A DNA stretch of 64,000 nt from an uncultured Acidobacteriota bacterium (GTDB lineage Bacteria; Acidobacteriota; JAQAZP01). Every line of letters begins with the position of its first letter. Position 1 is the first letter of the stretch. A program made the position numbers and the translations under genes. Positions 4,553 through 38,811 of this stretch are shown here, one piece after another. The stretch lies in contig CAWIIB010000009.1 of NCBI GenBank assembly GCA_963836075.1, positions 1,824,001 through 1,888,000 on the forward strand. The letters are read 5' to 3'. Under the pieces are notes generated by a model that saw nothing but the letters and a program-made list of their open reading frames with translations, was not told where the DNA came from and made no database searches.

Positions 4553-5701
4553 ATGATGAGAAGAGAGACACCGCGAGTCAAGCAGCTGCGACGGATGTAT
4601 TCCATCGAGGACGGAAGACTGCGGGGGGATGCCGGCTGGGAGAAACTCGCGTTCTTCTGGTTCCACCTCTTCCTGTCCTACCAGTGCACCAGAAGGTGCG
4701 ACTACTGCTATTCCTTCAACCAGGTGGGCAGCGACAACAAAACCGAAATGGACGAGAACACATTTTCCAGACTGCTGGACTGGATACCGGAAGTCTGGGA
4801 AGCCAACAACGTCAAGGTCAACGCCATCGGCTTCCTCGGCGGCGAGCCGCTTCTGCGCACCGACCGGATCAAGCGCGTGATGGATGCGGTCTACGAGAAC
4901 ACCGACGGCATGCAGGGCTTTGTCTATACCAACGGCGACACCATCGACGACGTGAACTGGGATGATCTGGAGGACATCCAGTGGATATCCACGAACATCA
5001 CCGACATCAGTTTTGATGAGCTGGCCAGAAGAATGAAGGTCGTCAGTGACCGCTCGAACGTCATCGGCCAGACCGTGGTGGCCACCCTGGATGATGAAAA
5101 CCTCGAGCGGGCCCTCGAGATCACCAGGTTCGGCGTCGACCATGGCTACCGGCTGAGGTTTTACCGCAATCTGTACCGCGGGCTGGATGCGGAGTACCGG
5201 GTCAGGTTGCTCAAGACCTATCACGACATCTGTGATCTGCTGGAACACGCGGTAGCCAGGGGATACGACGTTCACACCACCTTCATGATCGATACGCTGA
5301 TCCCCCTCTGGGGCCATGAGACGTCGCCGTACCAGTGCGGGCAGCGGGTGGCCACCGTATTCCCGGACGGGTCGATCGGGCCGTGCATCAGGAACCACTC
5401 CTTGAAGACCGGGACGATCTTCGACGCGGACCCGATGAGCAAACTGCAGTGCGGTTCCTATCACTACGGGTTCAACGAGACGGGCACTCCCGATGAGTGC
5501 CTGGCCTGCGAATCGAAAACCTCCTGCCAGGGGGGGTGCCCGAACGACAAACTGGTCCTCACCGGCTGCGAATCCGGCACGTCGGTGATGTGCGAGATCC
5601 ACCGGGAGATCATTCCGAGGTTGAGACATCTGGAAGAACTGAAAAGGGAACACCGGGACAGGGAAAGCAAGAGTAACCTGGAAGTAGGTTCATTGCGTTA
5701 G
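4553..5701 (+). CDS. Radical SAM protein with SPASM domain
   Basis: CTRRCDYC (CxxxCxxC), FLGGEPLL and YTNG, plus SPASM Cys pattern CGQRVATVFPDGSIGPC...CLACESKTSCQGGC...C. Start is 1 nt after the tetR stop. Confidence 0.9.
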   Translation: MMRRETPRVKQLRRMYSIEDGRLRGDAGWEKLAFFWFHLFLSYQCTRRCDYCYSFNQVGSDNKTEMDENTFSRLLDWIPEVWEANNVKVNAIGFLGGEPLLRTDRIKRVMDAVYENTDGMQGFVYTNGDTIDDVNWDDLEDIQWISTNITDISFDELARRMKVVSDRSNVIGQTVVATLDDENLERALEITRFGVDHGYRLRFYRNLYRGLDAEYRVRLLKTYHDICDLLEHAVARGYDVHTTFMIDTLIPLWGHETSPYQCGQRVATVFPDGSIGPCIRNHSLKTGTIFDADPMSKLQCGSYHYGFNETGTPDECLACESKTSCQGGCPNDKLVLTGCESGTSVMCEIHREIIPRLRHLEELKREHRDRESKSNLEVGSLR

Positions 5702-5734
5702 CTGAATGAATTCGTCTGGATAGCGGGGTTGAAC

Positions 5735-9598: not shown

Positions 9599-12500
9599 AT
9601 GAACCCGGAAGGACGAAGGCAAGTGGAAAAAATCTCAGTTGACAGGAATCTCGGAGATGTCCTGGTGGTGGGCGGCGGGATCAGCGGCATTCAGGCCGCC
9701 CTGGACATGGCCGCCGCCGGCTTCAAGGTCTACCTGGTGGAGAAGGGGCCGAGCATCGGCGGTCACATGGCCCAGCTGGACAAGACCTTTCCCACCAATG
9801 ACTGCTCCACGTGAATACTCGCACCTAAAATGGTCGAGTTCGGCCGTCATCAAAATATCGAAGCCCTGACCTACGCTGAAGTTGACAACGTGGAAGGTGA
9901 GGTCGGTGACTTCACGGTCACCGTGACCCGCAAGCCCCGCTACATCGACGAGGACATCTGCACCGGCTGCGGCATCTGTATGAAATACTGCCCGGTGGAT
10001 ATTCCCGATCCCTACAACCAGGGGCTGTCCAGCAACAAAGCGATCCATATCTACTTTTCCCAGGCCATTCCCCTGGTCACCTACATCGATCAGAGCTGCC
10101 TCAAGCTCAAGGAGGGCAAGTGCGACATCTGTACCGGTGTCTGCCAGCCCAGGGCCATCGACTTCAGGCAAACCGCCGAGAAGATCGAACTGAACGTGGG
10201 GACCATCATCCTGTCCGCCGGCATCGCGCCGTTCGATCCCGCCGTGGTGGATGAGTACGGCTACAAGAAATATCAGAACGTGGTCACCAGCATGGACTAC
10301 GAGCGGCTGCTCTCCGCCACCGGCCCGTACCAGGGCGAGATCCTGCGCGCCACCGACCGCAAACATCCCAAAAAGGTGGCCTGGCTGCAGTGCGTCGGCT
10401 CGCGCAAGGTCACCCCGGGGGAGAACAGCTACTGCTCCGGAGTCTGCTGCACCTATACCCAGAAGCAGGTGATCCTGACCAAGGACCACGAGGCCGAGGC
10501 GGAGTGCACGGTATTCCACAACGACATCCGCGCCATCGGCAAGGATTTCGAGCGCTACTACCAGAGAGCCGAAGACCTGCCCGGGGTGCGCTTCATCAGA
10601 AGCTACACCTCGGTGGTGCGGGAAATTCCGGAGAGCGGGAACGTGGTGGTGCGCTACTCCACCCCCGATGAAGGCGTGAAAGAGGAAGAATTCGAGATGG
10701 TGGTGCTGTCGGTGGGATTGAATCCGCCCGCCGACCACCAGGAGCTCTCCCATACCTTCGGCATCGGCCTCAATCCGCACGGGTTTCCCGAAACACCGCT
10801 GGAGAATCCCATGGCCACCACCCGGCCCGGGGTCTTTGTCAGCGGCGCCATGCAGGGGCCCATCGACATTCCGGAGTCGGTGTTCAGCGCCAGCGGCGCC
10901 GGCGCCCAGTGCGGTGAAGCGCTGCACTACCGCCGGGGCAAGTTGACCGAGGAGAAGACCTATCCGCCGGAGCGGGACACGGCCCGGGAGGAGCCGAGAA
11001 TCGGCGTCTTCGTCTGCCACTGCGGGGCGAACATCGGCAGCGTGGTGAACGTGCCTTCCGCCGTGGAATATGCCTGGACACTGCCCAACGTGGTTCACGC
11101 CCAGGAACAGCTCTTCTCCTGCGCCACCAATGCCGTCAGGGAGATCACCGATCTGGCGGAACAGAAAGGGCTCAACCGGGTGGTGATTGCCGCCTGCTCT
11201 CCCAGGACCCTGGAGGAACTGTTCCGCGACACCCTGCGTGAAGCGGGGCTCAACCAGTATTACCTGGAGATGGCCAACATCCGGGAGCAGTGCTCCTGGG
11301 TCCACTCGAAGGAAAAGGAAGCCGCCACCAGGAAATCGAAGGACATCATCAGGATGTCGGTGGCCCGGGCCGCCCACCTGGAGCCGCTGCAGGAGTTCGA
11401 CCTGCCGGTGAACAAGACCACCCTGGTGATCGGCGGCGGGATCGCCGGAATGACCTGTGCGCTGTCCATCGCCAACCAGGGCTACATGGTACACCTGGTG
11501 GAGAAGGACAAGCGTCTGGGCGGGATGGCGCGACGGATCCACAGCACCCTGGAGGGGATGGATGTCCAGGCCTATCTGGACGAGATGATCCAGTCGATCT
11601 ACCGCAACCCGATGATCCATGTATCGCAGGAAGCCAGCATCAGGGACGTTTCCGGATACGTGGGGAACTTCACCACCATCGTCGAATCCCAGGGCCGGGT
11701 GAAGAAGATCGATCACGGCGCCGCGGTCATCGCCATCGGGGCTGACGTCTACCAGCCGGCCGAATACCTCTACGGCGAGGACGACCGGGTGCTGACCCAC
11801 CTCGAACTGGGCGAGAAAATCGCCGGGAAGGACGAGGCGGTGGCCAACGCCCAGAGCCTGGTGATGATCCAGTGCGTGGGGTGCCGGAACGAGGACCGCA
11901 ACTACTGCAGCCGGGTCTGCTGCAGCCACGCTATCAAGAACGCCCTGAAGCTGAAAGAGATCAACCCCGGGATGGCGATCTACATCCTCTTCCGGGACAT
12001 GCGGACTTACGGCTTCAAGGAAGACTACTACCGGGAAGCGGCGGACAAGGGTGTGAACTTCATCCAGTACTCGCCGGAGAACGGGCCCGAAGTGGAAGCG
12101 GGCAAGAACGAGGCGGGCCAGCCCTGCCTCAAGGTCAGCGTGCCGGACCTCATTCTGGGCAACCGTCTGGAGCTGGACGCCGACATCCTGTCCCTGGCCG
12201 CTGCCGTGGTCCCCTCACCGGCGACCAGGGAGGTTGCCGGCCTGTTCAGGGTCACCCTGAATCCGGACCAGTTCTTCAAGGAGGCCCACGTCAAGCTGCG
12301 GCCAGTGGAGTTTGCCGCCGACGGCGTCTATCCTCTGCGGCATGGCGCACTACCCGAAGCACATCGAGGAGACGGTCAACCAGGCGTATGGCGCCGCCGG
12401 CCGGGTGCTGACCATGATGTCCCACGACACCGTGGTGGCTTCGGGTTCCGTGGCCGAGGTGGAAGAGTACGATTGCGTGTCCTGCGGGGCCTGCATCACC

Positions 12501-22961: not shown

Positions 22962-24419
22962 ATGATCTCCGATCTTCAAGCGTTCGCCTCCAGCGGCATT
23001 CTGCTGCTGTTCATTCTGTTCCTCAGCCTCCTCGGCCGCCGCAACCCGATCATCGGCAAGCGGATAAGCATCCTCCTCCTCGCCCTGCTGATCCAGCTGG
23101 TGAGCGACACGGTGACCTACTTTCACCTGCCGCTGCCCGAGTTCGTCAGCCAGGGGCTGATCGCCCTGCTGCTGATGCTGCTGGCCATCTTCCTGGTCAG
23201 TGTGCTCAAGGCGTTTTCGCTCACCTGGCTCTCTGACAAGGGGGTCAAGGTCTCCAAGCTGATCACCGATGTCTCGGTGGGCCTGATCTACGCCATCCTG
23301 GCCCTCGTCCTGCTCAAGGAGCTGTTCGGGATAAACGTCACCCCGCTGCTGGCCACCTCGGCGGTGCTGACCATGGTTCTCGGCCTGGCCCTGCAGGACA
23401 CCCTGGCCAACCTCATCGCCGGGACGGTTTTTCACTTCGAGAACTCGATCCGCATCGGCGACTGGCTGGAGTTTGACGGGGTGACCGGTGAGGTGCGTGA
23501 GCTCTCCTGGAGGGCAGTGCGGTTGGTCACCACCCGCAAGGACGACATCCTGATCCCCAACACCATCCTGACCAAGCAGAAGTTCAGCAACCTGACCAAG
23601 TTGGGCCGGGCCCGGGAGAAGGATATCGGCACCAGCTACCGCGACGACCCGGACCTGGTGCTGCGGGTGCTGCGCAAGGCGGTGCTCTCCACCCCGGGGG
23701 TGCGCTGGGAGCCGGAGCCGCAGATCTGGATCACCGGTTTCGACGACTTCTCGATCAACTACCGCGTCCGCTTCTACATCAAGCAATACCGCGGATACCA
23801 GAAACTGGAAGGCGCAGTGATGCGCAACATCTGGTACCTGTTCAAGGCCCACGGCATCACCATTCCCTTCCCCATCCGCACCCTGCAGATCGAGCGCCGC
23901 CGCACGCCGGTCCCGGCCGCCCATGGCCCGGAGGAAATCCGCCAGGCGTTGCGCGGTGTCGATATTTTTACGACCTTCAGCGAGAGCGAAATTGCCGAAA
24001 TCGCGGAGTACAGCGAACTGCTGGACTATCCGCGGGGAACGGTGCTCACCGAGGAGGGCGAGTCGGGGGAGAGCATGTTCGCCTTACTCGCCGGGCGGGT
24101 GGAGGTGCTCAAGACCGGCAAACGGATCACCACCCTGGCTGCGGGGGACATCTTCGGCGAGATCTCGCTCTTCTCCGGCGGCGAGCGGACCGCTTCGGTG
24201 CGGGCGCTCACCGGCCTGGAAGTGCTGGTGATCCCCAAGGACGGTTTCGAGACGATCCTGAAAAAGAACAAGGAGTTCATCTCCAAGATAGAATCCATCG
24301 TCGAGGAGCGGCTGGAGACCTATCCCGAATTCTCCGACCTGGAGAAGACCGCCAAGCCGAAGGTCAGCCTGATCAAACAGATTCGAAGTTATCTACTGGG
24401 CGGCGGACAGAAGTCCTGA
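22962..24419 (+). CDS. MscS-family channel with C-terminal cyclic-nucleotide-binding domain
   Basis: GLALQDTLANLIAG..IRIGDWLE; cNMP motif GDIFGEISLFSGGERTASVRA. Confidence 0.88.
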   Translation: MISDLQAFASSGILLLFILFLSLLGRRNPIIGKRISILLLALLIQLVSDTVTYFHLPLPEFVSQGLIALLLMLLAIFLVSVLKAFSLTWLSDKGVKVSKLITDVSVGLIYAILALVLLKELFGINVTPLLATSAVLTMVLGLALQDTLANLIAGTVFHFENSIRIGDWLEFDGVTGEVRELSWRAVRLVTTRKDDILIPNTILTKQKFSNLTKLGRAREKDIGTSYRDDPDLVLRVLRKAVLSTPGVRWEPEPQIWITGFDDFSINYRVRFYIKQYRGYQKLEGAVMRNIWYLFKAHGITIPFPIRTLQIERRRTPVPAAHGPEEIRQALRGVDIFTTFSESEIAEIAEYSELLDYPRGTVLTEEGESGESMFALLAGRVEVLKTGKRITTLAAGDIFGEISLFSGGERTASVRALTGLEVLVIPKDGFETILKKNKEFISKIESIVEERLETYPEFSDLEKTAKPKVSLIKQIRSYLLGGGQKS

Positions 24420-24465
24420 GCCTGTTTGCACAATTCATGGACAATGACATCCCGGCGGAGGCCGC

Positions 24466-24732
24466 ATGAAACAACAGTACGCAGCACCACGGATCCGCAG
24501 CGAGAAATGCTTTGAAACCAGTGCTCTCGGTTGTGCCAAGCAGTCCAGTATGAACCCCGGGTCGTGGCATTTCGCCAACCCGTACGACACCTTCACCGGC
24601 CACCTTGGTTCGGGGCTCGGCGCCAGCGAATCGGTCACCGGGTCGGCGGGGGTGGGGTTCGGACCTGGCGGCACGTCGGCTTCCTATAACTATCCCGGTT
24701 TATGTGAGAACTGGGTCACCATGGTTTCCTGA
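24466..24732 (+). CDS. Putative RiPP-like precursor peptide, copy 1 (88 aa)
   Basis: RBS GGAGG. MKQQYAAPRIRSEKCFETSALGCAK-QSSMNPGSWHFANPYDTFTGHLGSGLGASESVTGSAGVGFGPGGTSASYNYPGLCENWVTMVS. Two paralogs follow. Confidence 0.75.
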   Translation: MKQQYAAPRIRSEKCFETSALGCAKQSSMNPGSWHFANPYDTFTGHLGSGLGASESVTGSAGVGFGPGGTSASYNYPGLCENWVTMVS

Positions 24733-24786
24733 GGACGGTGGACAATGACGGCTGCCTGGCAAGGCCGGCATCATGAAAGGTTGGCC

Positions 24787-25054
24787 ATGAAAAAAGAGTA
24801 CAGGCTCGCCACGGATCTGCAGTGAAAAGAGTTTCGAAACCAGCGCTCTGTCCTGCGCGAAAACGAACGACCCGCCCATGGGGTCATGGCACTTCGGCAG
24901 TGCGTACGACACCTTTACCGGTCACCTCTCATGGGGGTTTGGCGGCAGTGAGTCGGTTTCCGGGCCCATCGGGGTGGGATACGGCCCTGGCGGTACCACC
25001 GCGTCCTACGGTTACAGCGGGCTGTGCAGCAACTGGGTCACCTTTCACTCCTGA
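24787..25054 (+). CDS. Putative RiPP-like precursor, copy 2 (88 aa after removing an extra A at 24802)
   Basis: Corrected translation: MKKEYGSPRICSEKSFETSALSCAKTNDPPMGSWHFGSAYDTFTGHLSWGFGGSESVSGPIGVGYGPGGTTASYGYSGLCSNWVTFHS. Absent from the ORF track. Confidence 0.72.
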
Positions 25055-25108
25055 GGACGGTGGACAACGCCGGCCGCCTGGGTCGGTCGGCATACTGAAA
25101 GGCCGGCC

Positions 25109-25385
25109 ATGAAAAAAGAGTACGGCTCACCACGAATCTGCAGCGAGAAGAGTTTCGAGACTAGCGCGCTGTACCTGCGCCAAGACTCCCGGTGACCCGC
25201 CACCGGGGGCCTGGCATTTCAGCAGCGCTTATGACACCTTCACCGGCCACTTCGGGCCCTCCATGGGCCCTCGAGAATCGGAAACCGGGGCCACCGGTAT
25301 CGGATGGGGTCCGGGGGGCACGACCATGTCCGGTTCTTACGCGGCGTACTTACAATGTACGCACTGGGTTACATATTCCTCCTGA
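25109..25385 (+). CDS. Putative RiPP-like precursor, copy 3 (91 aa after removing an extra base near 25173)
   Basis: Corrected translation: MKKEYGSPRICSEKSFETSALSCAKTPGDPPPGAWHFSSAYDTFTGHFGPSMGPRESETGATGIGWGPGGTTMSGSYAAYLQCTHWVTYSS. Confidence 0.72.
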
Positions 25386-25419
25386 TGCCGCGAACTGATC
25401 CTGCAAAACCCCGCCGCAC

Positions 25420-25455
25420 AAAAAACGGGGCCGGACGTTTTCACGCCCGGCCCCG
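25420..25455 (-). terminator. Intrinsic terminator between convergent genes
   Basis: AAAAAA-CGGGGCCGGACGT-TTTC-ACGCCCGGCCCCG; the U-tract is on the minus strand. Confidence 0.7.
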
Positions 25456-25486
25456 CGGTTAGTTCCTCCTTCTATCCCCCAGCAGG

Positions 25487-28400
25487 TCAGTTGACCGTCA
25501 CCGACGTCTGGAAGACCACGTATCCCACCTGCTCGGTGGTGTGCCTCCGCTCATTGTCGTTCACCTGGTCCTCGTCGACCCAGAGGTCCATGCCCGAGGC
25601 GCTGACGCCGCCGACGGTGTTGGCCCAGCCGCCGTTTCCGCCGTCCATGGCCGCCATGGTGATCACGGCCACCGCCGGCACGCCGCCGAAGGCGGTGTCG
25701 AAGGTGTAGGCGTAGGGCCCGCCGTTGTCCGGGCCGCGCACGGAGTCCGCACCAACCTTGGCCTCGAAAGCCGAACCGCCGATGGTGCCGTGACCGGCCT
25801 CGAAGACGATGAAGCCCACCGTCTCGTTGGCCCGGGTGGTGTCCGGGTCTTCAGCGACCTCCTTGCCGGTAATCAGGGCGGTGGCTGTGGGGATGTTGGA
25901 GCGGGCGCTGCCGGCGCACCAGAAGGCTGACCAGTCGGGGTCGTTCTCGGTCATCACCTGACCGAGGACCACCGGGTTGGTGTAGCTCTGGCCGTAGGTC
26001 TGGCTCTCGCCGTTCCAGCTGTTGTTCTCGTCGGTCACCGTGGAGAGGTAGGTCTGGGCCTCGCAGTTGACGCCGTCGATGGTCCAGGTGCCCTCCTCCA
26101 TCACGATGTAGCTCACCGTTTCGGCGGCCACCCCGCTGTCCGAGGGGTTCTGCAGCCGCACGTCGAAGCTGTTGGCCGTGACGTTGCTCACCCGGGTGAC
26201 GATGGGAATGCTGTTGTTGTTGTAGTCGGCGGAGCAGACGACAACCGCACTGGTGTAGGTGTTGTTGAGGTTCACCGTGACGGGGGTTCCGCCCACGGTC
26301 ACCGTGCCGGTTTCCATCCGTGCCTGCGGGCCGGTCTCGCACTCGTCGGGGATGCCGTTGAGGTCGGTGTCCTCGCTGGTGCCGTCGGCGATGTCGCAGG
26401 AATCGGGGGTGCCGTTGCTGTTGCAGTCCGGTTCACCGGCGCAGGCATCACCGATGCCGTCGTTGTCGCAGTCCTCCTGTCCTGGGTTGTAGGTTGCGGG
26501 ACAGTTGTCCACACAGTCGGCCCAGCCGTCGCCGTCACCGTCCGTGTCGGGCACTCCGCAGCCGCAGATGCCGGGGTCAAACTTGTTGGGATCGCTGGGG
26601 CAGCCGTCGATGCAGTCGGCCACGCCGTCACCGTCACTGTCGGTATCCGGGGTGCCGCAGCCGCAGTCGCCGGGAGCGATCTTGTTGGGATCGCTGGGGC
26701 AGCCGTCCATGCAGTCGGCCGTTCCGTCACCGTCACTATCGGTATCCGGGGTGCCGCAGCCGCAGTCGCCGGGGGCCAGTTTGTCGGGATCGGCCGGGCA
26801 GCCGTCGCAGGGGTCGATCACCCCGTCACCGTCGCTGTCGGCCTGGCACTCGTCGGGCACGCCGTTGCCGTCGCAGTCCTGGCTGGTGCCGCCGGAGATA
26901 TCCTCGCTGTCGGGGACGCCGTTGTTGTTGCAGTCGATCATGCCGGCGGGGTAGACCATCGCCGTCTCGAACACCGCGTAGGCCACCTGTTCGGTGATGT
27001 GCCCGCGTTCGGTGTCCATGATCTGGTCTTCGTCGATGGAGAGGTAGAGGTTGGTGGCCGACGCCGGCGTGCCGTGGGTCTGGGCCCAGCCGCCGTTGCT
27101 GCCGTCCATGCCGGCCTGGGTGACCACGTTGACCGCCGGGGCGGAGGCGAAGGCAGTGTTGAAGGTGTAGGTGTAGGGCGGACTGTTGGTCACACCCTCG
27201 ATCAGATCGGAGCCCATCACCGCTTCGAAGTCCACGCCGCCGATGGTGCCGTGGCCGGCCTCGAAGACGATGAAGCCGATGGTTTCGTCGGCGCGGGTGA
27301 TGTCGGTGTCCTCGCAGACGGTCTTGCCGGTTTTGAGGACCGAGGCGCTCGGCGCGCTGGAACGGCTGGAACCGTAGCTCCAGAAGACCGACCAGTCAGA
27401 ATCGTTCTCGCTCATCACCTGGCCCAGCACCACCGGGGTGGTGTAGCCCTGGCCGTAGGCCTGGGTCTCGCCGACCCAACTGCCGTTTTCATCGGTCACC
27501 GTGGAGAGGTAGGTCTGGGCTTCGCAGTTGACGCCGTCGATGGTCCAGACGCCTTCCTCCATCACCAGGTAGCTCACCTCTTCGGCCGACACGGCGCTGC
27601 CCGAGGGGTTCTGCAGCCGGACGTCGAAGCTGTTGGTGGTGACGTTACTCACCCGGGCCACCACCGGGATGGCGTTGGCGCTGTAGTTCACCGCACAGAC
27701 CACCACCGGGCTGACGTAGGTGTTGACCAGGGCCACCGAAGTGGCACTGCCGCCGGCGGTCACCGTGCCGGACTCCATTTTCGCTTCAGGCCCGACCTCG
27801 CACTCGTCGGGGATGCCGTTACTGTTGGTGTCCTGGCTGGTGCCGTCCGTGATGTCGCAGGAATCGGGGATACCGTTCAGGTTGCAGTCCGGTTCGCCGG
27901 CGCAGGCATCGCCAATGCCGTCGTTGTCACAGTCCTCCTGGCCGGGGTTGTAGGTGCCGGGGCAGTTGTCATCGCAGTCGATCCAGCCGTCACCGTCACT
28001 GTCGCCATCGGGCACACCGCAGCCGCAGATGCCGGGGTCGGTCTTGTTGGGATCGTCGGGGCAGCCGTCGTTGCAGTCCAGGGTGCCGTCACCGTCACTG
28101 TCCACGTCGGGCACTCCGCAGCCGCATTCGCCGGGAGCGATCTTGTTCGGGTCACTGGGGCAGCCGTCGATGCAGTCGGCCACGCCGTCACCGTCACTGT
28201 CCACGTCCAGCACTCCGCAGCCGCAGTCGCCGGGAGCGATCTTGTTCGGGTCGTTGGGGCAGCCATCGGCGCAGTCGGCCACGCCGTCGCCGTCGCTGTC
28301 CACGTCGGGCACGCCGCAGCCGCAGTCGCCGGGCGCGATCTTGTTCGGATCGTTGGGGCAGCCGTCGTTGCAGTCGGGCACGCCGTCACCGTCGCTGTCG

Positions 28401-31400
28401 GTGTCCGGAGTGCCGCAGCCGCAGTTGCCGGGGACGGTCTTGTCCGGGTCGGCCGGGCAGCCGTCACAGGGATCGATCAGGCCGTCGCCGTCCGAGTCGG
28501 TCTGGCACTCGTCAGGCACGCCGTTGCCGTCACAGTCCTGGGATGTCCCTTCAGAGATATCCTGTGCATCGGGCACGCCGTTGTTGTTGCAGTCCACCGA
28601 TTCGCACTCGTCGGGGATGCCGTTGCCGTTGCCGTCCAGGCTGGTGCCGTCGGCGATGTCACACTCGTCGGGCACGCCGTTGGAGTTGCAGTCCTCGCTG
28701 GTGCCGTCGGTGATGTCGCACTCGTCGGGCACGCCGTTGTCGTTGCAGTCGCCCGGGCCGCCGCCTGCGGAGGTCCCGGTGACCTCCACGTCGTCGATGT
28801 TCCAGCCGCAATACTGCCAGGAGCTGTCAGTGGTGCCCTGGGTCCAGCGGATGTAGACCGTTCCCTCATAGTCGGCCACCGCCGAGATGTCGTAACTCTG
28901 CAGGGTCCAGGAAGCGTCCTCGGTGGCCGAGTCGGGGTTCTGCCAGATGGTGGTCCAGCTCGATCCGTCGTTGCTCACCCGGATGTAGGCGTGGTCGTAG
29001 GTGCTGCGCTCCACTCCCAGCCAGCGGCGGAAGGAGAGGGAGACATCGTAGATGTTGGAGCAGTCGATGGCCGTGGTGGTCAGGTGCCTCTCGGGCAGGC
29101 TGTTCTCGTAGTCGCCGGAGAGGTTGTAGCCGTAGACATTGCTGCCGGTGTAGGCCGAGGAGGGGTCGGGGCCGCCGTACTGGCCGCCGCCGCCCGTCGG
29201 GGTGCCGAAGCCCCAGAGCCCTTCGATACTCCAGCCGGGGTTGGTGTCGAGCGTGAAGCTGATCGTTGACGCACCCGAGCCGACCTCGCAGTCGTCGGGG
29301 ATGCCGTTGGCGTTGCAGTCTTCACTGGTGCCCAGGGCGATGTCACAGAGGTCGGACTGGCCGTTGTTGTTGCAGTCGTCGCCGCCGCCGGGCTCGCAGT
29401 CGTCGGGGATGCCGTTGCTGTTGCAGTCGGTGCTGGTGCCGTAGCTGATGTCGCACTCGTCGGGCACGCCGTTGCCGTTGCAGTCGAGGCTGGTGCCGCC
29501 GGAGATGTCCTGGTCATCGGGCACACCGTTGTTGTTGCAGTCGGCCGGGCCGGCCACGCCCAGGGTGGGTGAACCGCAGATGGAGAAGGATTGCGGGCCG
29601 TCGGGCACGCTGTAGCCCTGCACGGTCACGGTCCAGGTGCCGGCTTCGGGATTGTCCACCAGCACCTGCTCGATGTTGTTGGTGTGGTCCGCCTGGTTGC
29701 GCACCGCCGAGCTGGAGGGGCTGGTGGGGTTCAGCGTCCAGGGGTAGGCCCGCACGCTGGAGGGGCTCATCACCACCAGGTCGAGATCGTTGACCAGATT
29801 GGGGTTGACGTTGGGCGTTCCGGCCACATCGTCCCAGGCCATGGTGATCTTCAGTTCCGAGGTGCCGCCGGGGACCACCACCTGGTAGGTCACCGTGCCG
29901 CCCTGGCTCACCGAGTTCTCCTCGAACTCGCCGCCGCGCATGAAGTCGATGGTGTCGACAATGCGGATCGAGCCGAAGCCGTACTGGTAGTCCGGGCCGG
30001 TATTGCCCAGGTCAACCGCGTTGTGGGCCAGCAGGATCTTCAGTGTCGAGTTGCGCGGGTCGTTCTGGGCCGGATACTGGGCCCGGAAGTCTTCCAGCAG
30101 CAGGGCCAGGCAGCCGGTGACCGTGGGCGAGGCCATGGAGGTGCCGCACATGGTGGTGTAACCGCCGCTGGAGGAGCAGGAGGTGACGCCGCCGTCGCCG
30201 CCGCTCTGACAGCCCGGGCCGGAGATGTCCGGCTTCATCCGGCCGTCATCGGTGGGGCCCCAGCTGCTGAAATAGGTCATGGAGTCGTTGTCGGAGTTCA
30301 GCGCGCCAACGGCGATCTGGTTTTTCGCTCCGGCCGGGGGCGGGACGCTGTAGTAGTCGCCGTAGCCCTCCACGTCGCAGCGGCTGCCGCCGCGCTCGTT
30401 GCCGTTGGCCCAGACGATGCGGAACGGCGCACCGAGGCTGCCGCCCACGATCTCGTCGATCAGCGCCGCGGTGGCGCCGTAGTCGCCCTGGTAGGCGCAG
30501 TTGAAGCCGTTGGACTCGATGTTCGAGCCGATGGAGTTGTTGGAGATGTCGACGCCGTAGGTGTTGATCGCCTGGTTGTAGTCCGATTCCAGGTCGCCGG
30601 GGTTGGTGTAGAGGAAGGTCCCCGAGCCGTCATACTGGAAGCCGTAGGACTGGATGGTCACCCCCGGCGCCATCCCTTCATAATTGCTGTTGCCCGAACC
30701 GTCGCCGCCAATGGTGCCGGAGACGTGAGTGGCGTGGTCGCCCAGACCCGAGCTGTCGCGCACGGTGAGACGTCCGCTGAAATCGCTGTGGGATGCCAGG
30801 GCATACGCGGCATCGTACACCAGCACGTTTATGCCGCTGCCGTCCAGGTTGTAGGGCGCGGTCTGGGCCGAATCGGCCTGGGTGACCACGCTGTTGCTGT
30901 CATTGGTCTCGGTCATGAAGGGCAGCGGCGGTTCGACCCACATCACCGCGTCTTCGGCGGCCAGGTCGAGCAGTGCCTTGAGCGGCATCTCCACCACCAG
31001 CATGTTGATCGAGACGATCTCGGAAACCACCGTGGCCTTGTGCGCCCGGGCCAGGGCCCAGCCCTTGTCCAGGGGGATGTCCCGGTGGAACATCACATAG
31101 GCCGCCACCAGCGCTTCCTTGGTGTCCGCGTCCACGGCGATGGCATAGTCAGGATACTCGTTGGCCAGGATTGAGGGGGCGAGCTTCCACTCCAGCTCGA
31201 TGGGCATGGCGGATATGAGGGTGGGCGCCGCCCGCAGGTCGGTGGTCTCCAGACCGCCGGTCTTCAGCGTGGCAAAGAAGGCGTTGCTGCCCAGGTAGCT
31301 GTGCAGGCCCACGCCAAGGGTTTCCAGCGCGGCCTTTTCCTCGAGGGTCACCGGCTTGCTGAACTGCACCACGATGTGTTGCCCGGAGCCTGACTTTGAC

Positions 31401-31585
31401 AGCTCGCTGAGCGCCACGAAGGCGGCATCGCCGGTTGGCCGGTCGCCCATTTCAACCCCGCTTCTCCAGCTGATCTCAGCCTGTGCCGTCCAGGCCGGGC
31501 CGAACAGCAGCAGGGCCGTGGTGATGATGGCAGTGATCACCAGGGCTGGGTGGAATCCTCTTCTGTACACAGAACTACCTGACAT
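25487..31585 (-). CDS. Large secreted S8 (subtilisin-like) serine peptidase with Cys/Asp repeats and duplicated C-terminal beta domains
   Basis: Signal peptide (AQA-E) and triad VYD / HATHVSGTIGG / GTSMASP. Repeats DCNxNGVPDxC and DSDGDGxxDCxDGCPxDP, and two ~290-aa repeated modules beginning MESGTV and METGTV. Confidence 0.9.
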   Translation of the reverse strand: MSGSSVYRRGFHPALVITAIITTALLLFGPAWTAQAEISWRSGVEMGDRPTGDAAFVALSELSKSGSGQHIVVQFSKPVTLEEKAALETLGVGLHSYLGSNAFFATLKTGGLETTDLRAAPTLISAMPIELEWKLAPSILANEYPDYAIAVDADTKEALVAAYVMFHRDIPLDKGWALARAHKATVVSEIVSINMLVVEMPLKALLDLAAEDAVMWVEPPLPFMTETNDSNSVVTQADSAQTAPYNLDGSGINVLVYDAAYALASHSDFSGRLTVRDSSGLGDHATHVSGTIGGDGSGNSNYEGMAPGVTIQSYGFQYDGSGTFLYTNPGDLESDYNQAINTYGVDISNNSIGSNIESNGFNCAYQGDYGATAALIDEIVGGSLGAPFRIVWANGNERGGSRCDVEGYGDYYSVPPPAGAKNQIAVGALNSDNDSMTYFSSWGPTDDGRMKPDISGPGCQSGGDGGVTSCSSSGGYTTMCGTSMASPTVTGCLALLLEDFRAQYPAQNDPRNSTLKILLAHNAVDLGNTGPDYQYGFGSIRIVDTIDFMRGGEFEENSVSQGGTVTYQVVVPGGTSELKITMAWDDVAGTPNVNPNLVNDLDLVVMSPSSVRAYPWTLNPTSPSSSAVRNQADHTNNIEQVLVDNPEAGTWTVTVQGYSVPDGPQSFSICGSPTLGVAGPADCNNNGVPDDQDISGGTSLDCNGNGVPDECDISYGTSTDCNSNGIPDDCEPGGGDDCNNNGQSDLCDIALGTSEDCNANGIPDDCEVGSGASTISFTLDTNPGWSIEGLWGFGTPTGGGGQYGGPDPSSAYTGSNVYGYNLSGDYENSLPERHLTTTAIDCSNIYDVSLSFRRWLGVERSTYDHAYIRVSNDGSSWTTIWQNPDSATEDASWTLQSYDISAVADYEGTVYIRWTQGTTDSSWQYCGWNIDDVEVTGTSAGGGPGDCNDNGVPDECDITDGTSEDCNSNGVPDECDIADGTSLDGNGNGIPDECESVDCNNNGVPDAQDISEGTSQDCDGNGVPDECQTDSDGDGLIDPCDGCPADPDKTVPGNCGCGTPDTDSDGDGVPDCNDGCPNDPNKIAPGDCGCGVPDVDSDGDGVADCADGCPNDPNKIAPGDCGCGVLDVDSDGDGVADCIDGCPSDPNKIAPGECGCGVPDVDSDGDGTLDCNDGCPDDPNKTDPGICGCGVPDGDSDGDGWIDCDDNCPGTYNPGQEDCDNDGIGDACAGEPDCNLNGIPDSCDITDGTSQDTNSNGIPDECEVGPEAKMESGTVTAGGSATSVALVNTYVSPVVVCAVNYSANAIPVVARVSNVTTNSFDVRLQNPSGSAVSAEEVSYLVMEEGVWTIDGVNCEAQTYLSTVTDENGSWVGETQAYGQGYTTPVVLGQVMSENDSDWSVFWSYGSSRSSAPSASVLKTGKTVCEDTDITRADETIGFIVFEAGHGTIGGVDFEAVMGSDLIEGVTNSPPYTYTFNTAFASAPAVNVVTQAGMDGSNGGWAQTHGTPASATNLYLSIDEDQIMDTERGHITEQVAYAVFETAMVYPAGMIDCNNNGVPDSEDISGGTSQDCDGNGVPDECQADSDGDGVIDPCDGCPADPDKLAPGDCGCGTPDTDSDGDGTADCMDGCPSDPNKIAPGDCGCGTPDTDSDGDGVADCIDGCPSDPNKFDPGICGCGVPDTDGDGDGWADCVDNCPATYNPGQEDCDNDGIGDACAGEPDCNSNGTPDSCDIADGTSEDTDLNGIPDECETGPQARMETGTVTVGGTPVTVNLNNTYTSAVVVCSADYNNNSIPIVTRVSNVTANSFDVRLQNPSDSGVAAETVSYIVMEEGTWTIDGVNCEAQTYLSTVTDENNSWNGESQTYGQSYTNPVVLGQVMTENDPDWSAFWCAGSARSNIPTATALITGKEVAEDPDTTRANETVGFIVFEAGHGTIGGSAFEAKVGADSVRGPDNGGPYAYTFDTAFGGVPAVAVITMAAMDGGNGGWANTVGGVSASGMDLWVDEDQVNDNERRHTTEQVGYVVFQTSVTVN
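26340..29545 (-). repeat. Coding repeats (DCNxNG and thrombospondin type-3-like Ca-binding)
   Basis: Repeated GCAGCCGCAGTCGCCGGG...GATCTTGTT units inside the S8 gene. Confidence 0.8.
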
Positions 31586-31770
31586 TGGAAACTCCCCCTT
31601 CTTTTGGTTGTAGGTCATACGATCGCTTTGGCAATGACGACAGTTATTTGAGGAGGCAAAACCACTTGGCCGGCAGTTGCTGTGCTGACCGGCCACGACA
31701 CTATTGTCCTTAATATATGGCAAGGAAGGGGGAAATTCAATATTTTGGAGGAGAAAATTGACTTAGAAAC

Positions 31771-31965
31771 AGACATAGGGGACGCACATAACTTCTATAA
31801 CTTGCGGATAACCTGTTTTATTTTATCTGGATAGACTTACGTTTTCAGGGGCGTGACTGACGAATCCATGGTTCATGCCCCGCAGCACCTGGTCCGTTCC
31901 CTGCAACGCTCTATAGCTCAACGGAATATGGGAATGTTATAAAGTTATCTGCGTCCCCGGTGTCT
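31771..31965. mobile_element. About 195-bp MITE/REPIN-like element
   Basis: About 30-bp imperfect terminal IR AGACATAGGGGACGCACATAACTTCTATAAC / GTTATAAAGTTATCTGCGTCCCCGGTGTCT, with internal hairpin GGGGCGTGA..TCATGCCCC. Abuts the methyltransferase stop. Confidence 0.6.
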
Positions 31966-33013
31966 AGTTGGCAGCATCGATCATCACCATACCGTCGGTG
32001 AAGCGCCGGGCCGGGCCACTGGAAAAGGTGAGGTCGGTGCGGGTGATGGCGGTGAACCCGGCGGAGCGCAGCTGAGTCTCCAGCAGCTCTGCCGAGGGGA
32101 AGGCGAATTCCGGGTCATCCAGCGAGTGCTGGAGCGCCCAGTGTATCCGGGTCCAGGGGGCTTCACCACCACCCGGGGCCAACTGGTCCACGATCACCAG
32201 CCGGCCGCCCGGGTTCAGAGCGGAGCGGACTTTGCGAAAAAGATCCTCCCCGTAGGTGTCCACGTCACACTCCAGCACAAGGTCGAAGCTGACCGGCAGC
32301 GGATCATCGAGGAAGTCGGCCTCGTGCCAGCTGATGCGACCGGTCTCCTCCCCGTCCCCCGCAATTTCCCGGCCCACCCGGCATACGGTGGGAACGTCCA
32401 CCACCACCGACCGCAGCTGCGGGTGGCGGCGAAGCAGCGCGAGAGAAAAGATGCCGGACCCGCCGCCCAGGTCCATCATCCGGGTGACACCGTCCATCCT
32501 CAGCATGGACGCCAGTTCCTCAGCCATCCACCGGTGAAAGTCGCGGAGCATTCTGGTGAAGTGCAGGGCCAGGGCCGGGTCCGCCGTCATTTCAGCCAGG
32601 TAGTCACGTCGTTTCAGGCCCAGCGCATCCCGGGCCGAGCCGGGCTTTTTGAGATGAACGGCCAGGTCGCGCACCCAGCGGTTCAGCCCCCGGGTTTCCA
32701 TGGCCAGGTGGGCCCAACTCTCCCGTTCGAAGGTGTCGATGATGGCGGAACGTGCGGTGCTGGTGGGGCCAAAGCCGCCGGCGGTTTTTTCCACCAGGCC
32801 GGCCCGCTCCAGGAGCTGCAGCCAGTAACGGCAGCGGCCCGGGGGGATGCTGAGCCTGGCCGCGATGGCGCGGGAGGGAAGAGGCTGTTCATCGATCAAC
32901 CAGAAGAGGCCCAGCTCCAGGGCCGCGCCCAGGGCGGCGGAAGCGAAGGAGGCATCGAGGAGGTCGAGGACCTGGTCGGTGGTGGAAGGTTTCACCGGTC
33001 GGGCTCCAACCAT
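31964..33013 (-). CDS. SAM-dependent O-methyltransferase (dimerisation + Methyltransf_2)
   Basis: ALGAALELGLF, MDLGGGSG, ADFLDDPLP..FDLV, ALNPGGRLVIVD. Confidence 0.85.
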   Translation of the reverse strand: MVGARPVKPSTTDQVLDLLDASFASAALGAALELGLFWLIDEQPLPSRAIAARLSIPPGRCRYWLQLLERAGLVEKTAGGFGPTSTARSAIIDTFERESWAHLAMETRGLNRWVRDLAVHLKKPGSARDALGLKRRDYLAEMTADPALALHFTRMLRDFHRWMAEELASMLRMDGVTRMMDLGGGSGIFSLALLRRHPQLRSVVVDVPTVCRVGREIAGDGEETGRISWHEADFLDDPLPVSFDLVLECDVDTYGEDLFRKVRSALNPGGRLVIVDQLAPGGGEAPWTRIHWALQHSLDDPEFAFPSAELLETQLRSAGFTAITRTDLTFSSGPARRFTDGMVMIDAAN

Positions 33014-35940: not shown

Positions 35941-36113
35941 TCAGTTGTTCTGGGGGTTGAACGACTCGTTGACGCAGTGGCCAACTCGTCGGGGCTGACG
36001 TTGTTCCGGTCTGAGATGGCGTCCTTGGGGCAGATCCAGGTGTTGCCGTCCTCGGTTTTGATCCAGACCATCGGCTTGGCCGCTTTCCACTCGTTGCTCT
36101 TTTCTTTGATCAT
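35941..36113 (-). CDS. 57-aa two-Cys microprotein, copy 1 (1-nt deletion near 35979)
   Basis: Corrected: MIKEKSNEWKAAKPMVWIKTEDGNTWICPKDAISDRNNVSPDELADCVNESFNPQNN; RBS GGGAGGACAGG. Confidence 0.7.
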
Positions 36114-36261
36114 CGTCCTGTCCTCCCGTGACACCGGCGGTGTCGAAAATTTGTTGTTTCGGTTTCTATGTGCGTCGTCGTAATCAGTGGAGTTTCTTCT
36201 ACTTTTTGTTTTTGTTTCCGGCCCCTGACGCCTCGCGGGGTCAGGGGCCGGCTCAGAACAC

Positions 36262-37044
36262 TTACTGCATGTCGATGGTCTGGATGAAGAGGGTGAAGCT
36301 GTCGTCAAACAGGCTGCCGATGGCATACACGATGTAGTTGATGCCGGGCTCGAAGACAACCGTGCCCGAAGAGAATGCGGGTTCGGTGGATCCGGCCGGG
36401 TAGAGCATGCCGTTCAGTTCGCCGGCCCAGAGGTCCACGGAACCGAAGGAGCTGGGCTTCATGCCATCGTTGTTGGTCAGGTTCTGTCCACCCACGAACA
36501 GCGAGCGGCCGGCATAGCCGGACTCGGAGGTGAAGACCCGCTGCAGGTCGAGGTCCACGGCCGGGGCGTCAGCGGTGTGGCGGACGGTGATCCGGGTACG
36601 GCCGTTGCGCAGCGGGGCGGTGTTGTTCTCGAAGAGCGACAGGGCGATGCCGTTGCTATCACCGTCGATGAAGGTCAGGTGGGCAATGATGGTGTAGTCA
36701 CTGCCCGGCTCGGGGCTGACCGTGCGGGACAGCACCGTGGTGCCCTGGAGCTTGATCTCGATGTCGTAGTCGCCGCGGGGCAGGGCCAGGGGACCGGCGC
36801 TCTCGTTGAAGTCGAAGGAGAGCAGGTAGTCGCCGTTGACATAGACATCCACGGGAACCGGGAGGCCGGGGATGGCGTGGATGGCGGTGAGCATGGCCTC
36901 GTCCACTTCGGTGGTGTAGGCGTCATCGTTGAACGGGGCGGCACGGAAGCTGTCGGCAGCCTTGAAGGCTCTGACGTCGGCGGTGGCGCCGGCGGCCACG
37001 AGAATCAGCATCAGGGAAGCGAGGGAAGCAACTTTCTTCAACAT
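36262..37044 (-). CDS. Secreted DUF4397-like protein, copy 1
   Basis: Signal peptide; AIHAIPGLPVPVDVYVNG and VRHTADAPAVD repeats; YAIGSL. Confidence 0.75.
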   Translation of the reverse strand: MLKKVASLASLMLILVAAGATADVRAFKAADSFRAAPFNDDAYTTEVDEAMLTAIHAIPGLPVPVDVYVNGDYLLSFDFNESAGPLALPRGDYDIEIKLQGTTVLSRTVSPEPGSDYTIIAHLTFIDGDSNGIALSLFENNTAPLRNGRTRITVRHTADAPAVDLDLQRVFTSESGYAGRSLFVGGQNLTNNDGMKPSSFGSVDLWAGELNGMLYPAGSTEPAFSSGTVVFEPGINYIVYAIGSLFDDSFTLFIQTIDMQ

Positions 37045-37133
37045 TTTCTTTCTCCTTAAGGTCTATCGTTTTGTCCTGTCCAAGTTTCAGTTTGCGGGGC
37101 GGCTTCACTGTCCGCTCCCGATGTTCGAGATCA

Positions 37134-37180
37134 ATATACAGACTCAGAATCAGCTTGTCAAGTAAAAATCTAAAAAACTA
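37134..37180 (-). promoter_or_regulatory. Sigma70 promoter with CarH-type repeats, DUF4397 copy 1
   Basis: Minus strand: TTTTTTAGATTTTTAC-TTGACA-N17-TATATT. Confidence 0.65.
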
Positions 37181-37491
37181 TGAAAATAATATAGACAGAA
37201 TATAATGTACTAGACATACCGCCGCCCCTGCTTTTGATGGAAAGGCTTTATTGATTATAGACATTAATGGCCTCATCGGCCCAGGTTGCGTTGTTTATTA
37301 CTACGTAGACAAATAATAGACATTTGTGGGGCATGTGGCGTCGCGATACTGCAAACCTGCTCTCCGGATATGGTGCGGACAGGTCTTGCGAGGTTGTTAA
37401 GCCTGGTCTCTATAAAAGGAAGGGGGCGCCGGAGCGCCCTTGAAGGAGTGTTGGATTTCGCGTCGGTGAGAGACGCGGGCATGAGGACGTA

Positions 37492-37665
37492 TTAGTTGTT
37501 CTGTGGGTTGTGCGACTCGTTGACGCAGTCGGCCAGCTCGGCCGCGCTGACATTCTTTCGGTCGGTGATGGCGTCCTTGGGGCAGATCCAGGTGTTGCCG
37601 TCCTCGGTTTTGATCCAGACCATCGGCTTGGCCGCTTTCCACTCGTTGCTCTTTTCTTTGATCAT
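37492..37665 (-). CDS. 57-aa two-Cys microprotein, copy 2
   Basis: MIKEKSNEWKAAKPMVWIKTEDGNTWICPKDAITDRKNVSAAELADCVNESHNPQNN; strong RBS; terminator-like hairpin at 37414-37441. Confidence 0.75.
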   Translation of the reverse strand: MIKEKSNEWKAAKPMVWIKTEDGNTWICPKDAITDRKNVSAAELADCVNESHNPQNN

Positions 37666-37813
37666 CGTCCTGTCCTCCCGTGACACCGGCGGTGTCGAAA
37701 ATTTGTTGTTTCGGTTTCTATGTGCGTCGTCGTAATCAGTGGAGTTTCTTCTACTTTTTATTTTTGTTTCCGGCCCCTGACGCCTCGCGGGGTCAGGGGC
37801 CGGCTCAGAACAC

Positions 37814-38596
37814 TTACTGCATGTCGATGGTCTGGATGAAGAGGGTGAAGCTGTCGTCAAACAGGCTGCCGATGGCATACACGATGTAGTTGATGCCGGG
37901 CTCGAAGACAACCGTGCCCGAAGAGAATGCGGGTTCGGTGGATCCGGCCGGGTAGAGCATGCCGTTCAGTTCGCCGGCCCAGAGGTCCACGGAACCGAAG
38001 GAGCTGGGCTTCATGCCATCGTTGTTGGTCAGGTTCTGTCCACCCACGAACAGCGAGCGGCCGGCATAGCCGGACTCGGAGGTGAAGACCCGCTGCAGGT
38101 CGAGGTCCACGGCCGGGGCGTCAGCGGTGTGGCGGACGGTGATCCGGGTACGGCCGTTGCGCAGCGGGGCGGTGTTGTTCTCGAAGAGCGACAGGGCGAT
38201 GCCGTTGCTATCACCGTCGATGAAGGTCAGGTGGGCAATGATGGTGTAGTCACTGCCCGGCTCGGGGCTGACCGTGCGGGACAGCACCGTGGTGCCCTGG
38301 AGCTTGATCTCGATGTCGTAGTCGCCGCGGGGCAGGGCCAGGGGACCGGCGCTCTCGTTGAAGTCGAAGGAGAGCAGGTAGTCGCCGTTGACATAGACAT
38401 CCACGGGAACCGGGAGGCCGGGGATGGCGTGGATGGCGGTGAGCATGGCCTCGTCCACTTCGGTGGTGTAGGCGTCATCGTTGAACGGGGCGGCACGGAA
38501 GCTGTCGGCAGCCTTGAAGGCTCTGACGTCGGCGGTGGCGCCGGCGGCCACGAGAATCAGCATCAGGGAAGCGAGGGAAGCAACTTTCTTCAACAT
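37814..38596 (-). CDS. Secreted DUF4397-like protein, copy 2
   Basis: Translation identical to copy 1; own promoter TTGACA-N17-TATATT near 38685-38713. Confidence 0.75.
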   Translation of the reverse strand: MLKKVASLASLMLILVAAGATADVRAFKAADSFRAAPFNDDAYTTEVDEAMLTAIHAIPGLPVPVDVYVNGDYLLSFDFNESAGPLALPRGDYDIEIKLQGTTVLSRTVSPEPGSDYTIIAHLTFIDGDSNGIALSLFENNTAPLRNGRTRITVRHTADAPAVDLDLQRVFTSESGYAGRSLFVGGQNLTNNDGMKPSSFGSVDLWAGELNGMLYPAGSTEPAFSSGTVVFEPGINYIVYAIGSLFDDSFTLFIQTIDMQ

Positions 38597-38811
38597 TTTC
38601 TTTCTCCTTAAGGTCTATCGTTTTGTCCTGTCCAAGTTTCAGTTTGCGGGGCGGCTTCACTGTCCGCTCCCGATGTTCGAGATCAATATACAGACTTGAT
38701 AATCGAATGTCAAGAGTTTTTATAAAATTATTTAAAAAAAATATAGACAGTAAATCGGCCAACAAAATAGGGACGGAAGGAGAGCGGAATTACCTGGGCC
38801 AATGATGGGGG

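Follow-up and report, generated by a model that had tools for sequence, protein, structure and literature searches.

We analyzed a stretch of 64,000 nucleotides (hereafter, the window) from contig CAWIIB010000009.1 of an uncultured Acidobacteriota bacterium. On its plus strand, between positions 24466 and 25385, lie three tandem copies of a gene for a short peptide, and this array is the subject of the present report. The peptides have the layout of precursors of peptides that are made on ribosomes and modified after translation (RiPPs), and we propose that they are probably modified by enzymes encoded elsewhere in the genome. The elements of the array and its immediate surroundings are as follows.

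24466..24732, plus strand: copy 1 (P0001), an intact precursor open reading frame (ORF) of 88 amino acids (aa), from the ORF list and translation
24733..24786, plus strand: spacer 1, conserved with spacer 2, with GAAAGG as ribosome-binding motif, 7-8 nt ahead of the ATG
24787..25054, plus strand: copy 2, with its ATG at 24787 and a one-base insertion after codon 5, from alignment, translation and a hidden Markov model (HMM)
24802..24802, plus strand: surplus base A in copy 2, at alignment column 62, present neither in copies 1 and 3 nor in the reading of P0137
25055..25108, plus strand: spacer 2, homologous to spacer 1 by alignment
25109..25385, plus strand: copy 3, with its ATG at 25109, a subtype with a longer loop preceding the second Cys
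25173..25175, plus strand: position of the extra base of copy 3 (inside TACC), an A judged by the paralogues or one of the two Cs judged by the orthologue P0160
25425..25456, no strand assigned: G+C-rich hairpin (14 pairs) that lies between the array and a convergent S8 subtilase gene, from a terminator scan (fold z = -2.8)

The three units, each of about 322 bp, are arranged head to tail at spacings of 322 and 321/325 nt according to a repeat search, and their MAFFT alignment has a mean column identity of 78% and runs through the spacers. The array was missed by Tandem Repeats Finder; the copies are only about 75% alike. An HMM of the peptide family recognizes copy 1 (E 4e-47), copy 2 (E 9e-43) and copy 3 (E 8e-30, with the head of this copy matched separately at E 4e-5), and finds no fourth copy in the window. 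These results bear out a preliminary description of this DNA, made from the letters alone, which had reported a tandem array of three peptide units of roughly 320 bp.

Copy 1 is preceded by a GGAGG motif 6 nt before its ATG. Its leader comprises residues 1-22, and its putative core starts at Cys23. A homologue, P0004, is 94% identical. As sequenced, copy 1 is the sole copy predicted to be translatable. In copy 2, the shifted frame (P0002, 24803-25054) has 83 open codons to the stop at 25052-25054 and keeps all of the conserved residues. Copy 3 loses its frame within the TACC at 25172-25175, and from 25176 it has 69 open codons to the stop at 25383-25385. Apart from the single surplus bases, both copies are undamaged, and both have intact orthologues. 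That of copy 2, P0137, is 86% identical and also shares an in-frame upstream spacer. That of copy 3, P0160, is 93% identical and has a Tyr directly before the first Cys. This Tyr makes a C at 25174/25175 the likelier surplus base of copy 3, ahead of the A at 25173. Thus, the earlier claim that each of these copies is masked by one base stands, with the position at 24802 retained for copy 2 and that at about 25173 probably displaced for copy 3. Programmed frameshifting was considered and rejected, because P0137 and P0160 read straight through.

The pattern of substitution indicates coding sequence in all three copies. Copies 1 and 2 differ at 23, 19 and 43 sites at codon positions 1, 2 and 3, respectively, and third positions dominate among the copies generally. 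The ratio of nonsynonymous to synonymous substitution rates (dN/dS, by the method of Nei and Gojobori) is 0.14, 0.29 and 0.25 for the three pairs. In a wider set of 14 copy pairs, 11 allowed the calculation, and their values range from 0.11 to 0.30. These estimates come with saturated dS. Given the excess at third positions and the low dN/dS, all three frames, including the parts after the frameshifts, evolved as coding sequence, as had been argued from the synonymous differences in the preliminary description.

The spacers fold no better than shuffled sequences (z = -1.1 for spacer 1 and z = -1.0 for spacer 2), and therefore we claim no RNA element in them. An Rfam scan of positions 23500-26500 gave no match, and a sigma-70 promoter scan gave no site. 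The hairpin at 25425-25456, which has its T-run on the minus strand, is likely a terminator that may serve both transcripts.

Scans of the three peptides against Pfam and NCBIfam produced no match at E ≤ 10; the peptide family is uncurated and lies outside the coverage of both databases. A word-seeded search of 5.8 billion proteins yielded 166 relatives. Among the 120 of these that were listed, lengths are 86-118 aa and identities 57-94%, and the few that are named bear the label 'hypothetical protein'. A second, exhaustive scan, which covered 1.84 billion cluster representatives, returned 13 relatives. About 170 database proteins, with a size of 86-92 aa, are assigned to the family. In the ESM Atlas, only unnamed 'hypothetical protein' clusters were found (best 0.93), most commonly in Acidobacteriota. 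No description of the family or its motif appeared among the literature matches listed, subscription literature and supplements being outside the scope of that search.

Each peptide begins with a hydrophilic leader of about 22 residues (M-K-x-x-Y-x-x-P-x-I ... F-E-T-x-A-L). At the junction, A-L-[A/S/G] is followed by C-[A/G]-K, which opens a Gly/Ser/aromatic core of about 65 residues; one Cys stands first in this core, another eight residues before its end, and two His are conserved. Only P8, C23, H35 and C80 are invariant in 127 aligned sequences; at least 90% of these keep Y5, F16, E17, A20, L21, K25, Y40, H46 and W83, along with a Y-D-T-F-T-G-H block and a G-x-G-x-G-P-G-G-T block. The Cys, Trp, His and Tyr residues, all taken as invariant on the basis of the three copies, thus separate into C23, C80 and H35, for which the claim holds, and W34, which varies, or Y40, H46 and W83, which reach only the 90% level. 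At the junction, 127 of 130 relatives have Ala at position -3, and 124 of 130 have Ala, Ser or Gly at position -1. From there on, 121 of 130 contain two Cys, and 112 of 130 have their last Cys eight residues before the end. Of 133 relatives, 111 end in Ser and 16 in Thr.

We examined 40 loci detected in species-representative genomes by a tblastn-type scan. At each locus, the longest nonoverlapping ORFs were taken, backed by a scan of six-frame translations with custom HMMs, and enzymes were called from Pfam scans and custom HMMs. Three forms of precursor were distinguished. The long form, comprising full-length relatives of the array peptides, occurs in 14 loci (L001-L013 and L015). The medium form, with peptides of about 80 aa and a different core, occurs in eight loci (L014 and L016-L022) from Eisenbacteria and Fermentibacteria. 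The short form, with peptides of about 40 aa, occurs in 18 loci (L023-L040) from Armatimonadota, Terriglobales/Terriglobia, Rokubacteria, Methylomirabilia, Binataceae and a further Acidobacteriota metagenome-assembled genome (MAG). The tblastn matches of the medium and short forms are confined to residues 1-25/46, and what these forms have in common with the long form is limited to the first 25 or so residues (Y-x-x-P ... FET-x-AL-x-C-[AG]-K), a second Cys close to the C-terminus and a final Ser. The Armatimonadota peptides, of about 42 aa, have the same leader and three Cys; the neighbourhood of one of them (L037) holds only a B12-binding radical S-adenosylmethionine (rSAM) gene, 3.6 kb away.

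A set of four enzyme genes adjoins the peptide gene in 12 of the 40 loci. The set consists of an S24/S26-type peptidase, a kinase-like protein with a PEPCK/HprK fold, a PqqD protein and an rSAM/SPASM enzyme. Two of the full sets accompany the long form (L003 and L015) and ten accompany the 18 short-form loci (L027, L028, L031, L033-L036 and L038-L040). In L003, the genes for the kinase-like protein, PqqD, rSAM/SPASM enzyme and peptidase are followed by a tandem triple of long-form precursor genes, and L015 has the same order up to the end of its contig. Among medium-form loci, an rSAM gene lies directly upstream in L019-L021, a kinase-like gene is present in L018, and a more distant rSAM gene is found in L016. 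No match to any of the four profiles was obtained in 23 of the 40 loci, some of which are on short contigs. The co-occurrence of homologues with an RRE (the RiPP recognition element, of which PqqD is an example) and modifying enzymes, whose absence the preliminary description had named as possible counterevidence, is therefore seen for the long form in L003 and L015. The shorter Y-x-K-P ... FET-x-AL-x-CGK peptides that it mentioned near PqqD and rSAM genes do exist, and they lie beside PqqD and an rSAM/SPASM enzyme in 10 of the 18 short-form loci.

The enzymes were assigned as follows. PqqD proteins score E 1e-21 and 5e-22 in Pfam, which also finds Radical_SAM and SPASM domains. Compared across the three peptide classes, the rSAM enzymes show 35-44% identity over about 320-355 aa and have the common motif CNE-x-C-x-HC; their best NCBIfam matches are AhbD, NirJ, MftC, StsB and WgkB, at about 130-160 bits. 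The peptidase exceeds the Pfam S24 gathering score in L028 and L035, matches signal peptidase I (TIGR02228) weakly and below its cutoff (E 1e-5 to 8e-7), and has a visible G-G-S-M-M-P motif. The kinase-like protein is modelled with a mean predicted local distance difference test (pLDDT) score of 89, and its best Foldseek matches are to PEPCK (E 3e-9). In a profile search against PDB sequences, it gave only a marginal match to the P-loop of PEPCK (E 0.018), and its NCBIfam matches, to ScmC and HprK-related kinase A, are weak. An NTP_transf_5 gene is also present in L027, L028 and L040.

Structure prediction links the leader to the PqqD protein. When residues 1-32 of copy 1 were co-folded with the L003 PqqD, the ipSAE was 0.67, compared with 0.02 for the best control; the mark used is reached by 116 of 157 solved complexes and by 2 of 215 mismatched pairs. 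Agreement of contacts among runs was at least 92%, and the pLDDT of the partner was at least 60. In the predicted interface, leader residues 2-16 contact PqqD residues 31-40 and 62-85, and the Y-x-x-P stretch lies on a PqqD beta-strand, as would be expected if Y-x-x-P is the docking site for RRE/PqqD domains that the preliminary description took it to be. The model thus gives in silico support for binding of the leader to PqqD. For the whole peptide, AlphaFold2 predicted no fold from the alignment of 127 sequences (mean pLDDT 50.4, predicted template modelling score 0.22, residues 29-76 below 50), and so there is no sign in these models of the stable structural domain that had been named as possible counterevidence.

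The distribution of precursors within single genomes bears on how the array may be served. In the sister MAG, which holds L001 and L003, about eleven precursor copies are spread over seven loci, of which only L003 encodes the enzymes. A second MAG has six precursor loci, and the enzymes are encoded only at L015. In the window, custom HMMs for the four enzymes gave no match at E ≤ 1e-5, which extends to 64 kb the earlier remark that no maturase adjoins the array. Since the enzyme set lies outside the window, the array would be one of several dispersed precursor loci without enzymes. We read the array, with a probability of roughly 70%, as a group of orphan paralogous precursor genes of an uncurated RRE/rSAM-SPASM RiPP family, probably served in trans by one enzyme set. 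Modification in trans, which had been suggested earlier, has a counterpart in the sister genome with its one enzyme cluster and six enzyme-less loci, and it is probable for the array; the chemistry proposed for the product is putative. Overall, the observation made in the preliminary description is confirmed and its interpretation supported.

One rSAM gene does occur in the window (4481-5698, in the region 4481-7735), the only one there, directly upstream of an aldehyde:ferredoxin oxidoreductase gene. Its product has weak matches to peptide maturases of the SPASM/twitch type (PapB, 63 bits). As a maturase for the array it was rejected: it is 21-30% identical to the cluster rSAMs, mostly over part of the length, and the cluster rSAM HMM is silent at 1e-5.

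The following scheme could account for these data. The PqqD-type recognition protein would bind the Y-x-x-P-x-I element of the leader and hand the peptide to the rSAM/SPASM enzyme, which would install one or more crosslinks in the core, most likely through the two Cys. We favour these residues because, apart from the C-terminal Ser, the long, medium and short classes have no other core features in common. The kinase-like protein may phosphorylate the C-terminal Ser or Thr, a step that is a reasonable guess by analogy with the lasso peptides discussed below. The S24/S26 (signal-peptidase-like) serine peptidase would then remove the leader at the Ala-x-small junction; judged by its residues, this junction is an Ala-x-Ala-like site, with the Tyr of P0160 as an exception. 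A single enzyme set elsewhere in the genome would act on many scattered precursors, including those of the array.

B12-binding rSAM genes of the RiPP C-methyltransferase type lie beside enzyme-less long-form genes in two loci, immediately downstream in L007 (3035-4615) and convergently in L004 (784-3012). They score 99-133 bits with TIGR03975, for which the cutoff is 282, and their position hints at an extra tailoring step.

Several observations weigh against the reading of the array as orphan precursors served in trans. Besides the lack of the four enzymes in the window, two of the three copies are frameshifted as sequenced. Enzymes are not nearby in 12 of the 14 long-form loci (some contigs being short), and maturation of this array in trans is extrapolated by analogy from the sister MAG. 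All seven Armatimonadota short-form loci (L023-L026, L029, L030 and L037) lack the four cluster genes within about 4 kb, and so the enzyme-less layout is not peculiar to the long form. No curated NCBIfam cutoff is reached by the cluster rSAMs, PqqDs or kinase-like proteins; consequently, no chemistry can be transferred to them by homology. HPr kinase is absent among the Foldseek matches listed for the kinase-like protein, which are mostly PEPCK. The PqqD used in co-folding comes from the sister genome, and because solved RRE-leader complexes exist, the score may reflect likeness only. In P0160, the Tyr at position -1 does not fit a strict Ala-x-Ala rule. Finally, the core is conserved over its full length, with mean column identities of 46-66%, unlike most RiPP cores. 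Such conservation could equally fit a small folded or metal-binding protein. It also means that the term precursor 'library', used in the preliminary description, overstates the variability of the core.

Full-length conservation is also the starting point for a different view, that the peptides of loci without enzymes are not modified by an rSAM enzyme and are small Gly-rich proteins, either unmodified, disulfide-bonded or metal-binding through a site of two Cys and two His. C23, H35 and C80 are invariant and H46 is conserved in at least 90% of sequences, and most long-form loci have no enzyme nearby. We consider this view unlikely, however. By eye, the N-terminus has no hydrophobic stretch like that of a signal peptide, and no fold is predicted even with 127 sequences. 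Moreover, the N-terminal 25 residues are common to peptides inside enzyme clusters and are predicted to dock on PqqD, and peptides of the same type lie directly behind the enzymes in L003 and L015.

The surroundings of the array were compared with those of L001. This locus, from an Acidobacteriota MAG, is syntenic with positions 17.5-33 kb of the window and has three intact peptide genes in the same slot. Identities between the flanking proteins are as follows.

HlyD, window versus L001: 83%
AcrB, window versus L001: 92%
MscS-cNMP channel, window versus L001: 86%
S8 subtilase, window versus L001: 87% over the longest aligned segment (1,242 residues)
O-methyltransferase, window versus L001: 77%

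The peptides of the two loci are only 52-68% identical, with no one-to-one orthology, compared with 77-92% for flanking proteins. Precursor genes therefore turn over quickly. The array could be a decaying relic, with copies 2 and 3 as true recent pseudogenes, at most one peptide made, and the whole subject to birth-and-death turnover of redundant paralogues. Rapid turnover fits such a view, and so does the density of lesions: two frameshifts in the 0.92-kb array and none in roughly 3,500 flanking-gene codons aligned to L001. Both insertions are outside homopolymer runs. Decayed relatives also exist, namely in L009, where one TAG (10175-10177) replaces a Gln of sister sequences; in L013, where a TAG (1426-1428) is accompanied by loss of conserved residues; and in L004, where a 5'-truncated copy (394-495) lies behind an intact one. 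Yet copies 2 and 3 are otherwise flawless, their shifted frames staying open for 83 and 69 codons and dN/dS being 0.14-0.29, and their intact orthologues are 86% and 93% identical. We regard decay of the array as possible but somewhat doubtful.

A third single-base insertion in the window also bears on this question. The gene for a sigma-54-dependent activator (PAS, AAA+ and HTH_8 domains; 54373-55679) is split into two overlapping ORFs by one surplus base near 55032-55040, and the break (about 55035) falls inside the Walker-B 'L-L-L-D-E' stretch. The gene is either a pseudogene or the product of an assembly insertion error. The break hints that the assembly may carry such errors, which touches the trust to be placed in the frameshifts of the array and speaks against its being a relic. 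In terms of trans-served precursors, copies 2 and 3 would carry recent or artefactual one-base insertions: these may be recent mutations, making the copies pseudogenes, or assembly errors, and both readings stand.

Two genes downstream of the array invite the idea that it is matured in cis, with an S8 subtilase (25487-31723, minus strand) and an O-methyltransferase (31964-33013, minus strand) as dedicated processing enzymes. Subtilisin-type leader peptidases occur in lanthipeptide clusters, and the arrangement of peptide triple, S8 gene and O-methyltransferase gene is kept in L001. Because L001 is syntenic across the whole 15 kb, however, this conservation reflects relatedness and not linkage. 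There is no S8 gene within about 3.5 kb in the other 13 long-form loci, and the subtilase is convergent with the array and, at 2078 aa with repeat and lectin modules, is typical of a surface or secreted protease. Maturation in cis by these two enzymes is thus very improbable. The subtilase has internally duplicated halves, many short repeats rich in Cys and Asp, and an H-type lectin domain.

The proposed family can be compared with several known systems. It resembles the RRE (PqqD)-dependent rSAM/SPASM RiPPs, that is, sactipeptides, ranthipeptides, mycofactocin and PQQ. As in those systems, a small precursor has an N-terminal leader, a stand-alone PqqD and a SPASM rSAM adjoin precursors (here, in 12 of 40 loci), and conserved Cys are candidate thioether donors. 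The array gene also fits the plan of a short leader-plus-core precursor, being an 88-aa ORF with a head of about 25 residues that occurs on unrelated cores too. The differences are that the core here is about 65 aa long and conserved, that the cluster adds a kinase-like protein and a signal-peptidase-like protease, and that the rSAMs fall under the cutoffs for MftC (132 versus 265), StsB (135 versus 625) and PapB (67 versus 340). For the rSAM of L003, the best scores with curated families of sactipeptide and ranthipeptide maturases (StsB, AlbA, SkfB and PapB) are 135 (cutoff 625), 88 (cutoff 850) and 67 (cutoff 340). SkfB is not among the matches listed for this enzyme, and other cluster rSAMs score 58-78 with it against a cutoff of 300. 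Cluster rSAMs are likewise below the curated threshold for PqqE. With the mycofactocin model TIGR03962, scores are 125-137 bits (cutoff 265), and the precursors end in Ser or Thr, not Val-Tyr. Literature searches on rSAM/SPASM/PqqD in Acidobacteria and on RRE or ranthipeptide clusters in Acidobacteriota gave general RiPP papers and cluster surveys among the matches listed.

Lasso peptides offer a second comparison. Their Y-x-x-P leader motif is read by a PqqD-type B1 protein. Paeninodin and pseudomycoidin resemble the present family in their C-terminus: a Ser or Thr ends 127 of 133 relatives, a kinase-like gene is present in every full cluster, and NTP_transf_5 occurs in three loci. PsmN is a putative member of Pfam PF14907. 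HprK-family kinases are reported to phosphorylate the C-terminal Ser of both lasso peptides, after which a nucleotidyltransferase decorates the phosphate (PMC6993621). Unlike lasso systems, the clusters scanned here contain rSAM/SPASM enzymes and no lasso cyclase or B2 protease, and their HprK-related NCBIfam matches are weak. Specifically, Pfam found neither an Asn-synthetase-like cyclase (C) nor a transglutaminase-like B2 protease among 250 neighbour ORFs from the 40 loci.

In the layout of its genes, the family is closer to the prochlorosins, for which a 'solitary promiscuous enzyme' is described (PMC10783134) and in which ProcM serves many dispersed ProcA genes. Both systems have one enzyme set and scattered precursors, as in the sister MAG with its seven loci and enzymes at one. 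The enzymes here are rSAM/SPASM and PqqD proteins, not LanM, the leader belongs to another family, and the cores are conserved, whereas cores of the prochlorosin type are hypervariable.

The SynChlorMet cassette (ScmC/D/E/F; NCBIfam TIGR04248-04251) and the 'HPr-rel-A system' models share with the clusters an association of an HprK-like protein, a PqqD relative and an rSAM/SPASM enzyme, and weak matches to TIGR04249, TIGR04248, TIGR04250 and TIGR04352/3 were obtained. The scores are nevertheless far from the cutoffs, at 26-29 bits for ScmC (cutoff 125), 25 for ScmD (cutoff 100) and 86-121 for ScmE (cutoff 400). The SynChlorMet and HPr-rel-A systems are themselves uncharacterised. 'SynChlorMet' occurred in no paper of the library searched, and 'ScmC' and 'HprK-related kinase' returned only unrelated acronyms among the matches listed. 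Class IIb microcins such as MccE492 are long Gly/Ser-rich gene-encoded peptides with a decorated C-terminal Ser. Here the resemblance is an analogy only, since the leader type and enzymes differ and no sequence similarity is expected.

Taken further, the data allow a tentative and more specific hypothesis, in which the family would constitute a new RiPP class. Its products of about 65 residues would be crosslinked via the two invariant Cys by a distinct rSAM/SPASM clade, and their C-terminal Ser would be phosphorylated (and possibly decorated further); a signal-peptidase-like enzyme would release them. Through the invariant Cys2/His2 pattern, such a product could bind metal. One enzyme set would serve ten or more dispersed, fast-turning-over precursors in anaerobic Acidobacteriota, and the module of leader and enzymes would be re-used on cores of about 40 and 80 aa in several other lineages.

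If the array is indeed a group of precursors served in trans, the family would be spread widely over uncultured lineages of soil and sediment (Acidobacteriota, Rokubacteria, Armatimonadota, Binataceae, Fermentibacteria and Eisenbacteria), and it would combine in an unusual way an rSAM/SPASM enzyme and PqqD with a kinase-like protein, a signal-peptidase-like leader protease and a long conserved core. Genome mining based on clusters would miss most precursors of the family, given that six of the seven precursor loci in the sister genome lie away from any of the enzymes. With the leader motif and the custom HMMs, the remaining members can be sought directly.

Elsewhere in the window, a near-identical direct duplication of about 1.17 kb occupies positions of about 35980-37160 and 37532-38712, with an offset of 1552 bp. 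Each duplicated unit in this region (35980-38712) carries a 260-aa DUF4397 gene, and the Pfam scores of the two are identical.

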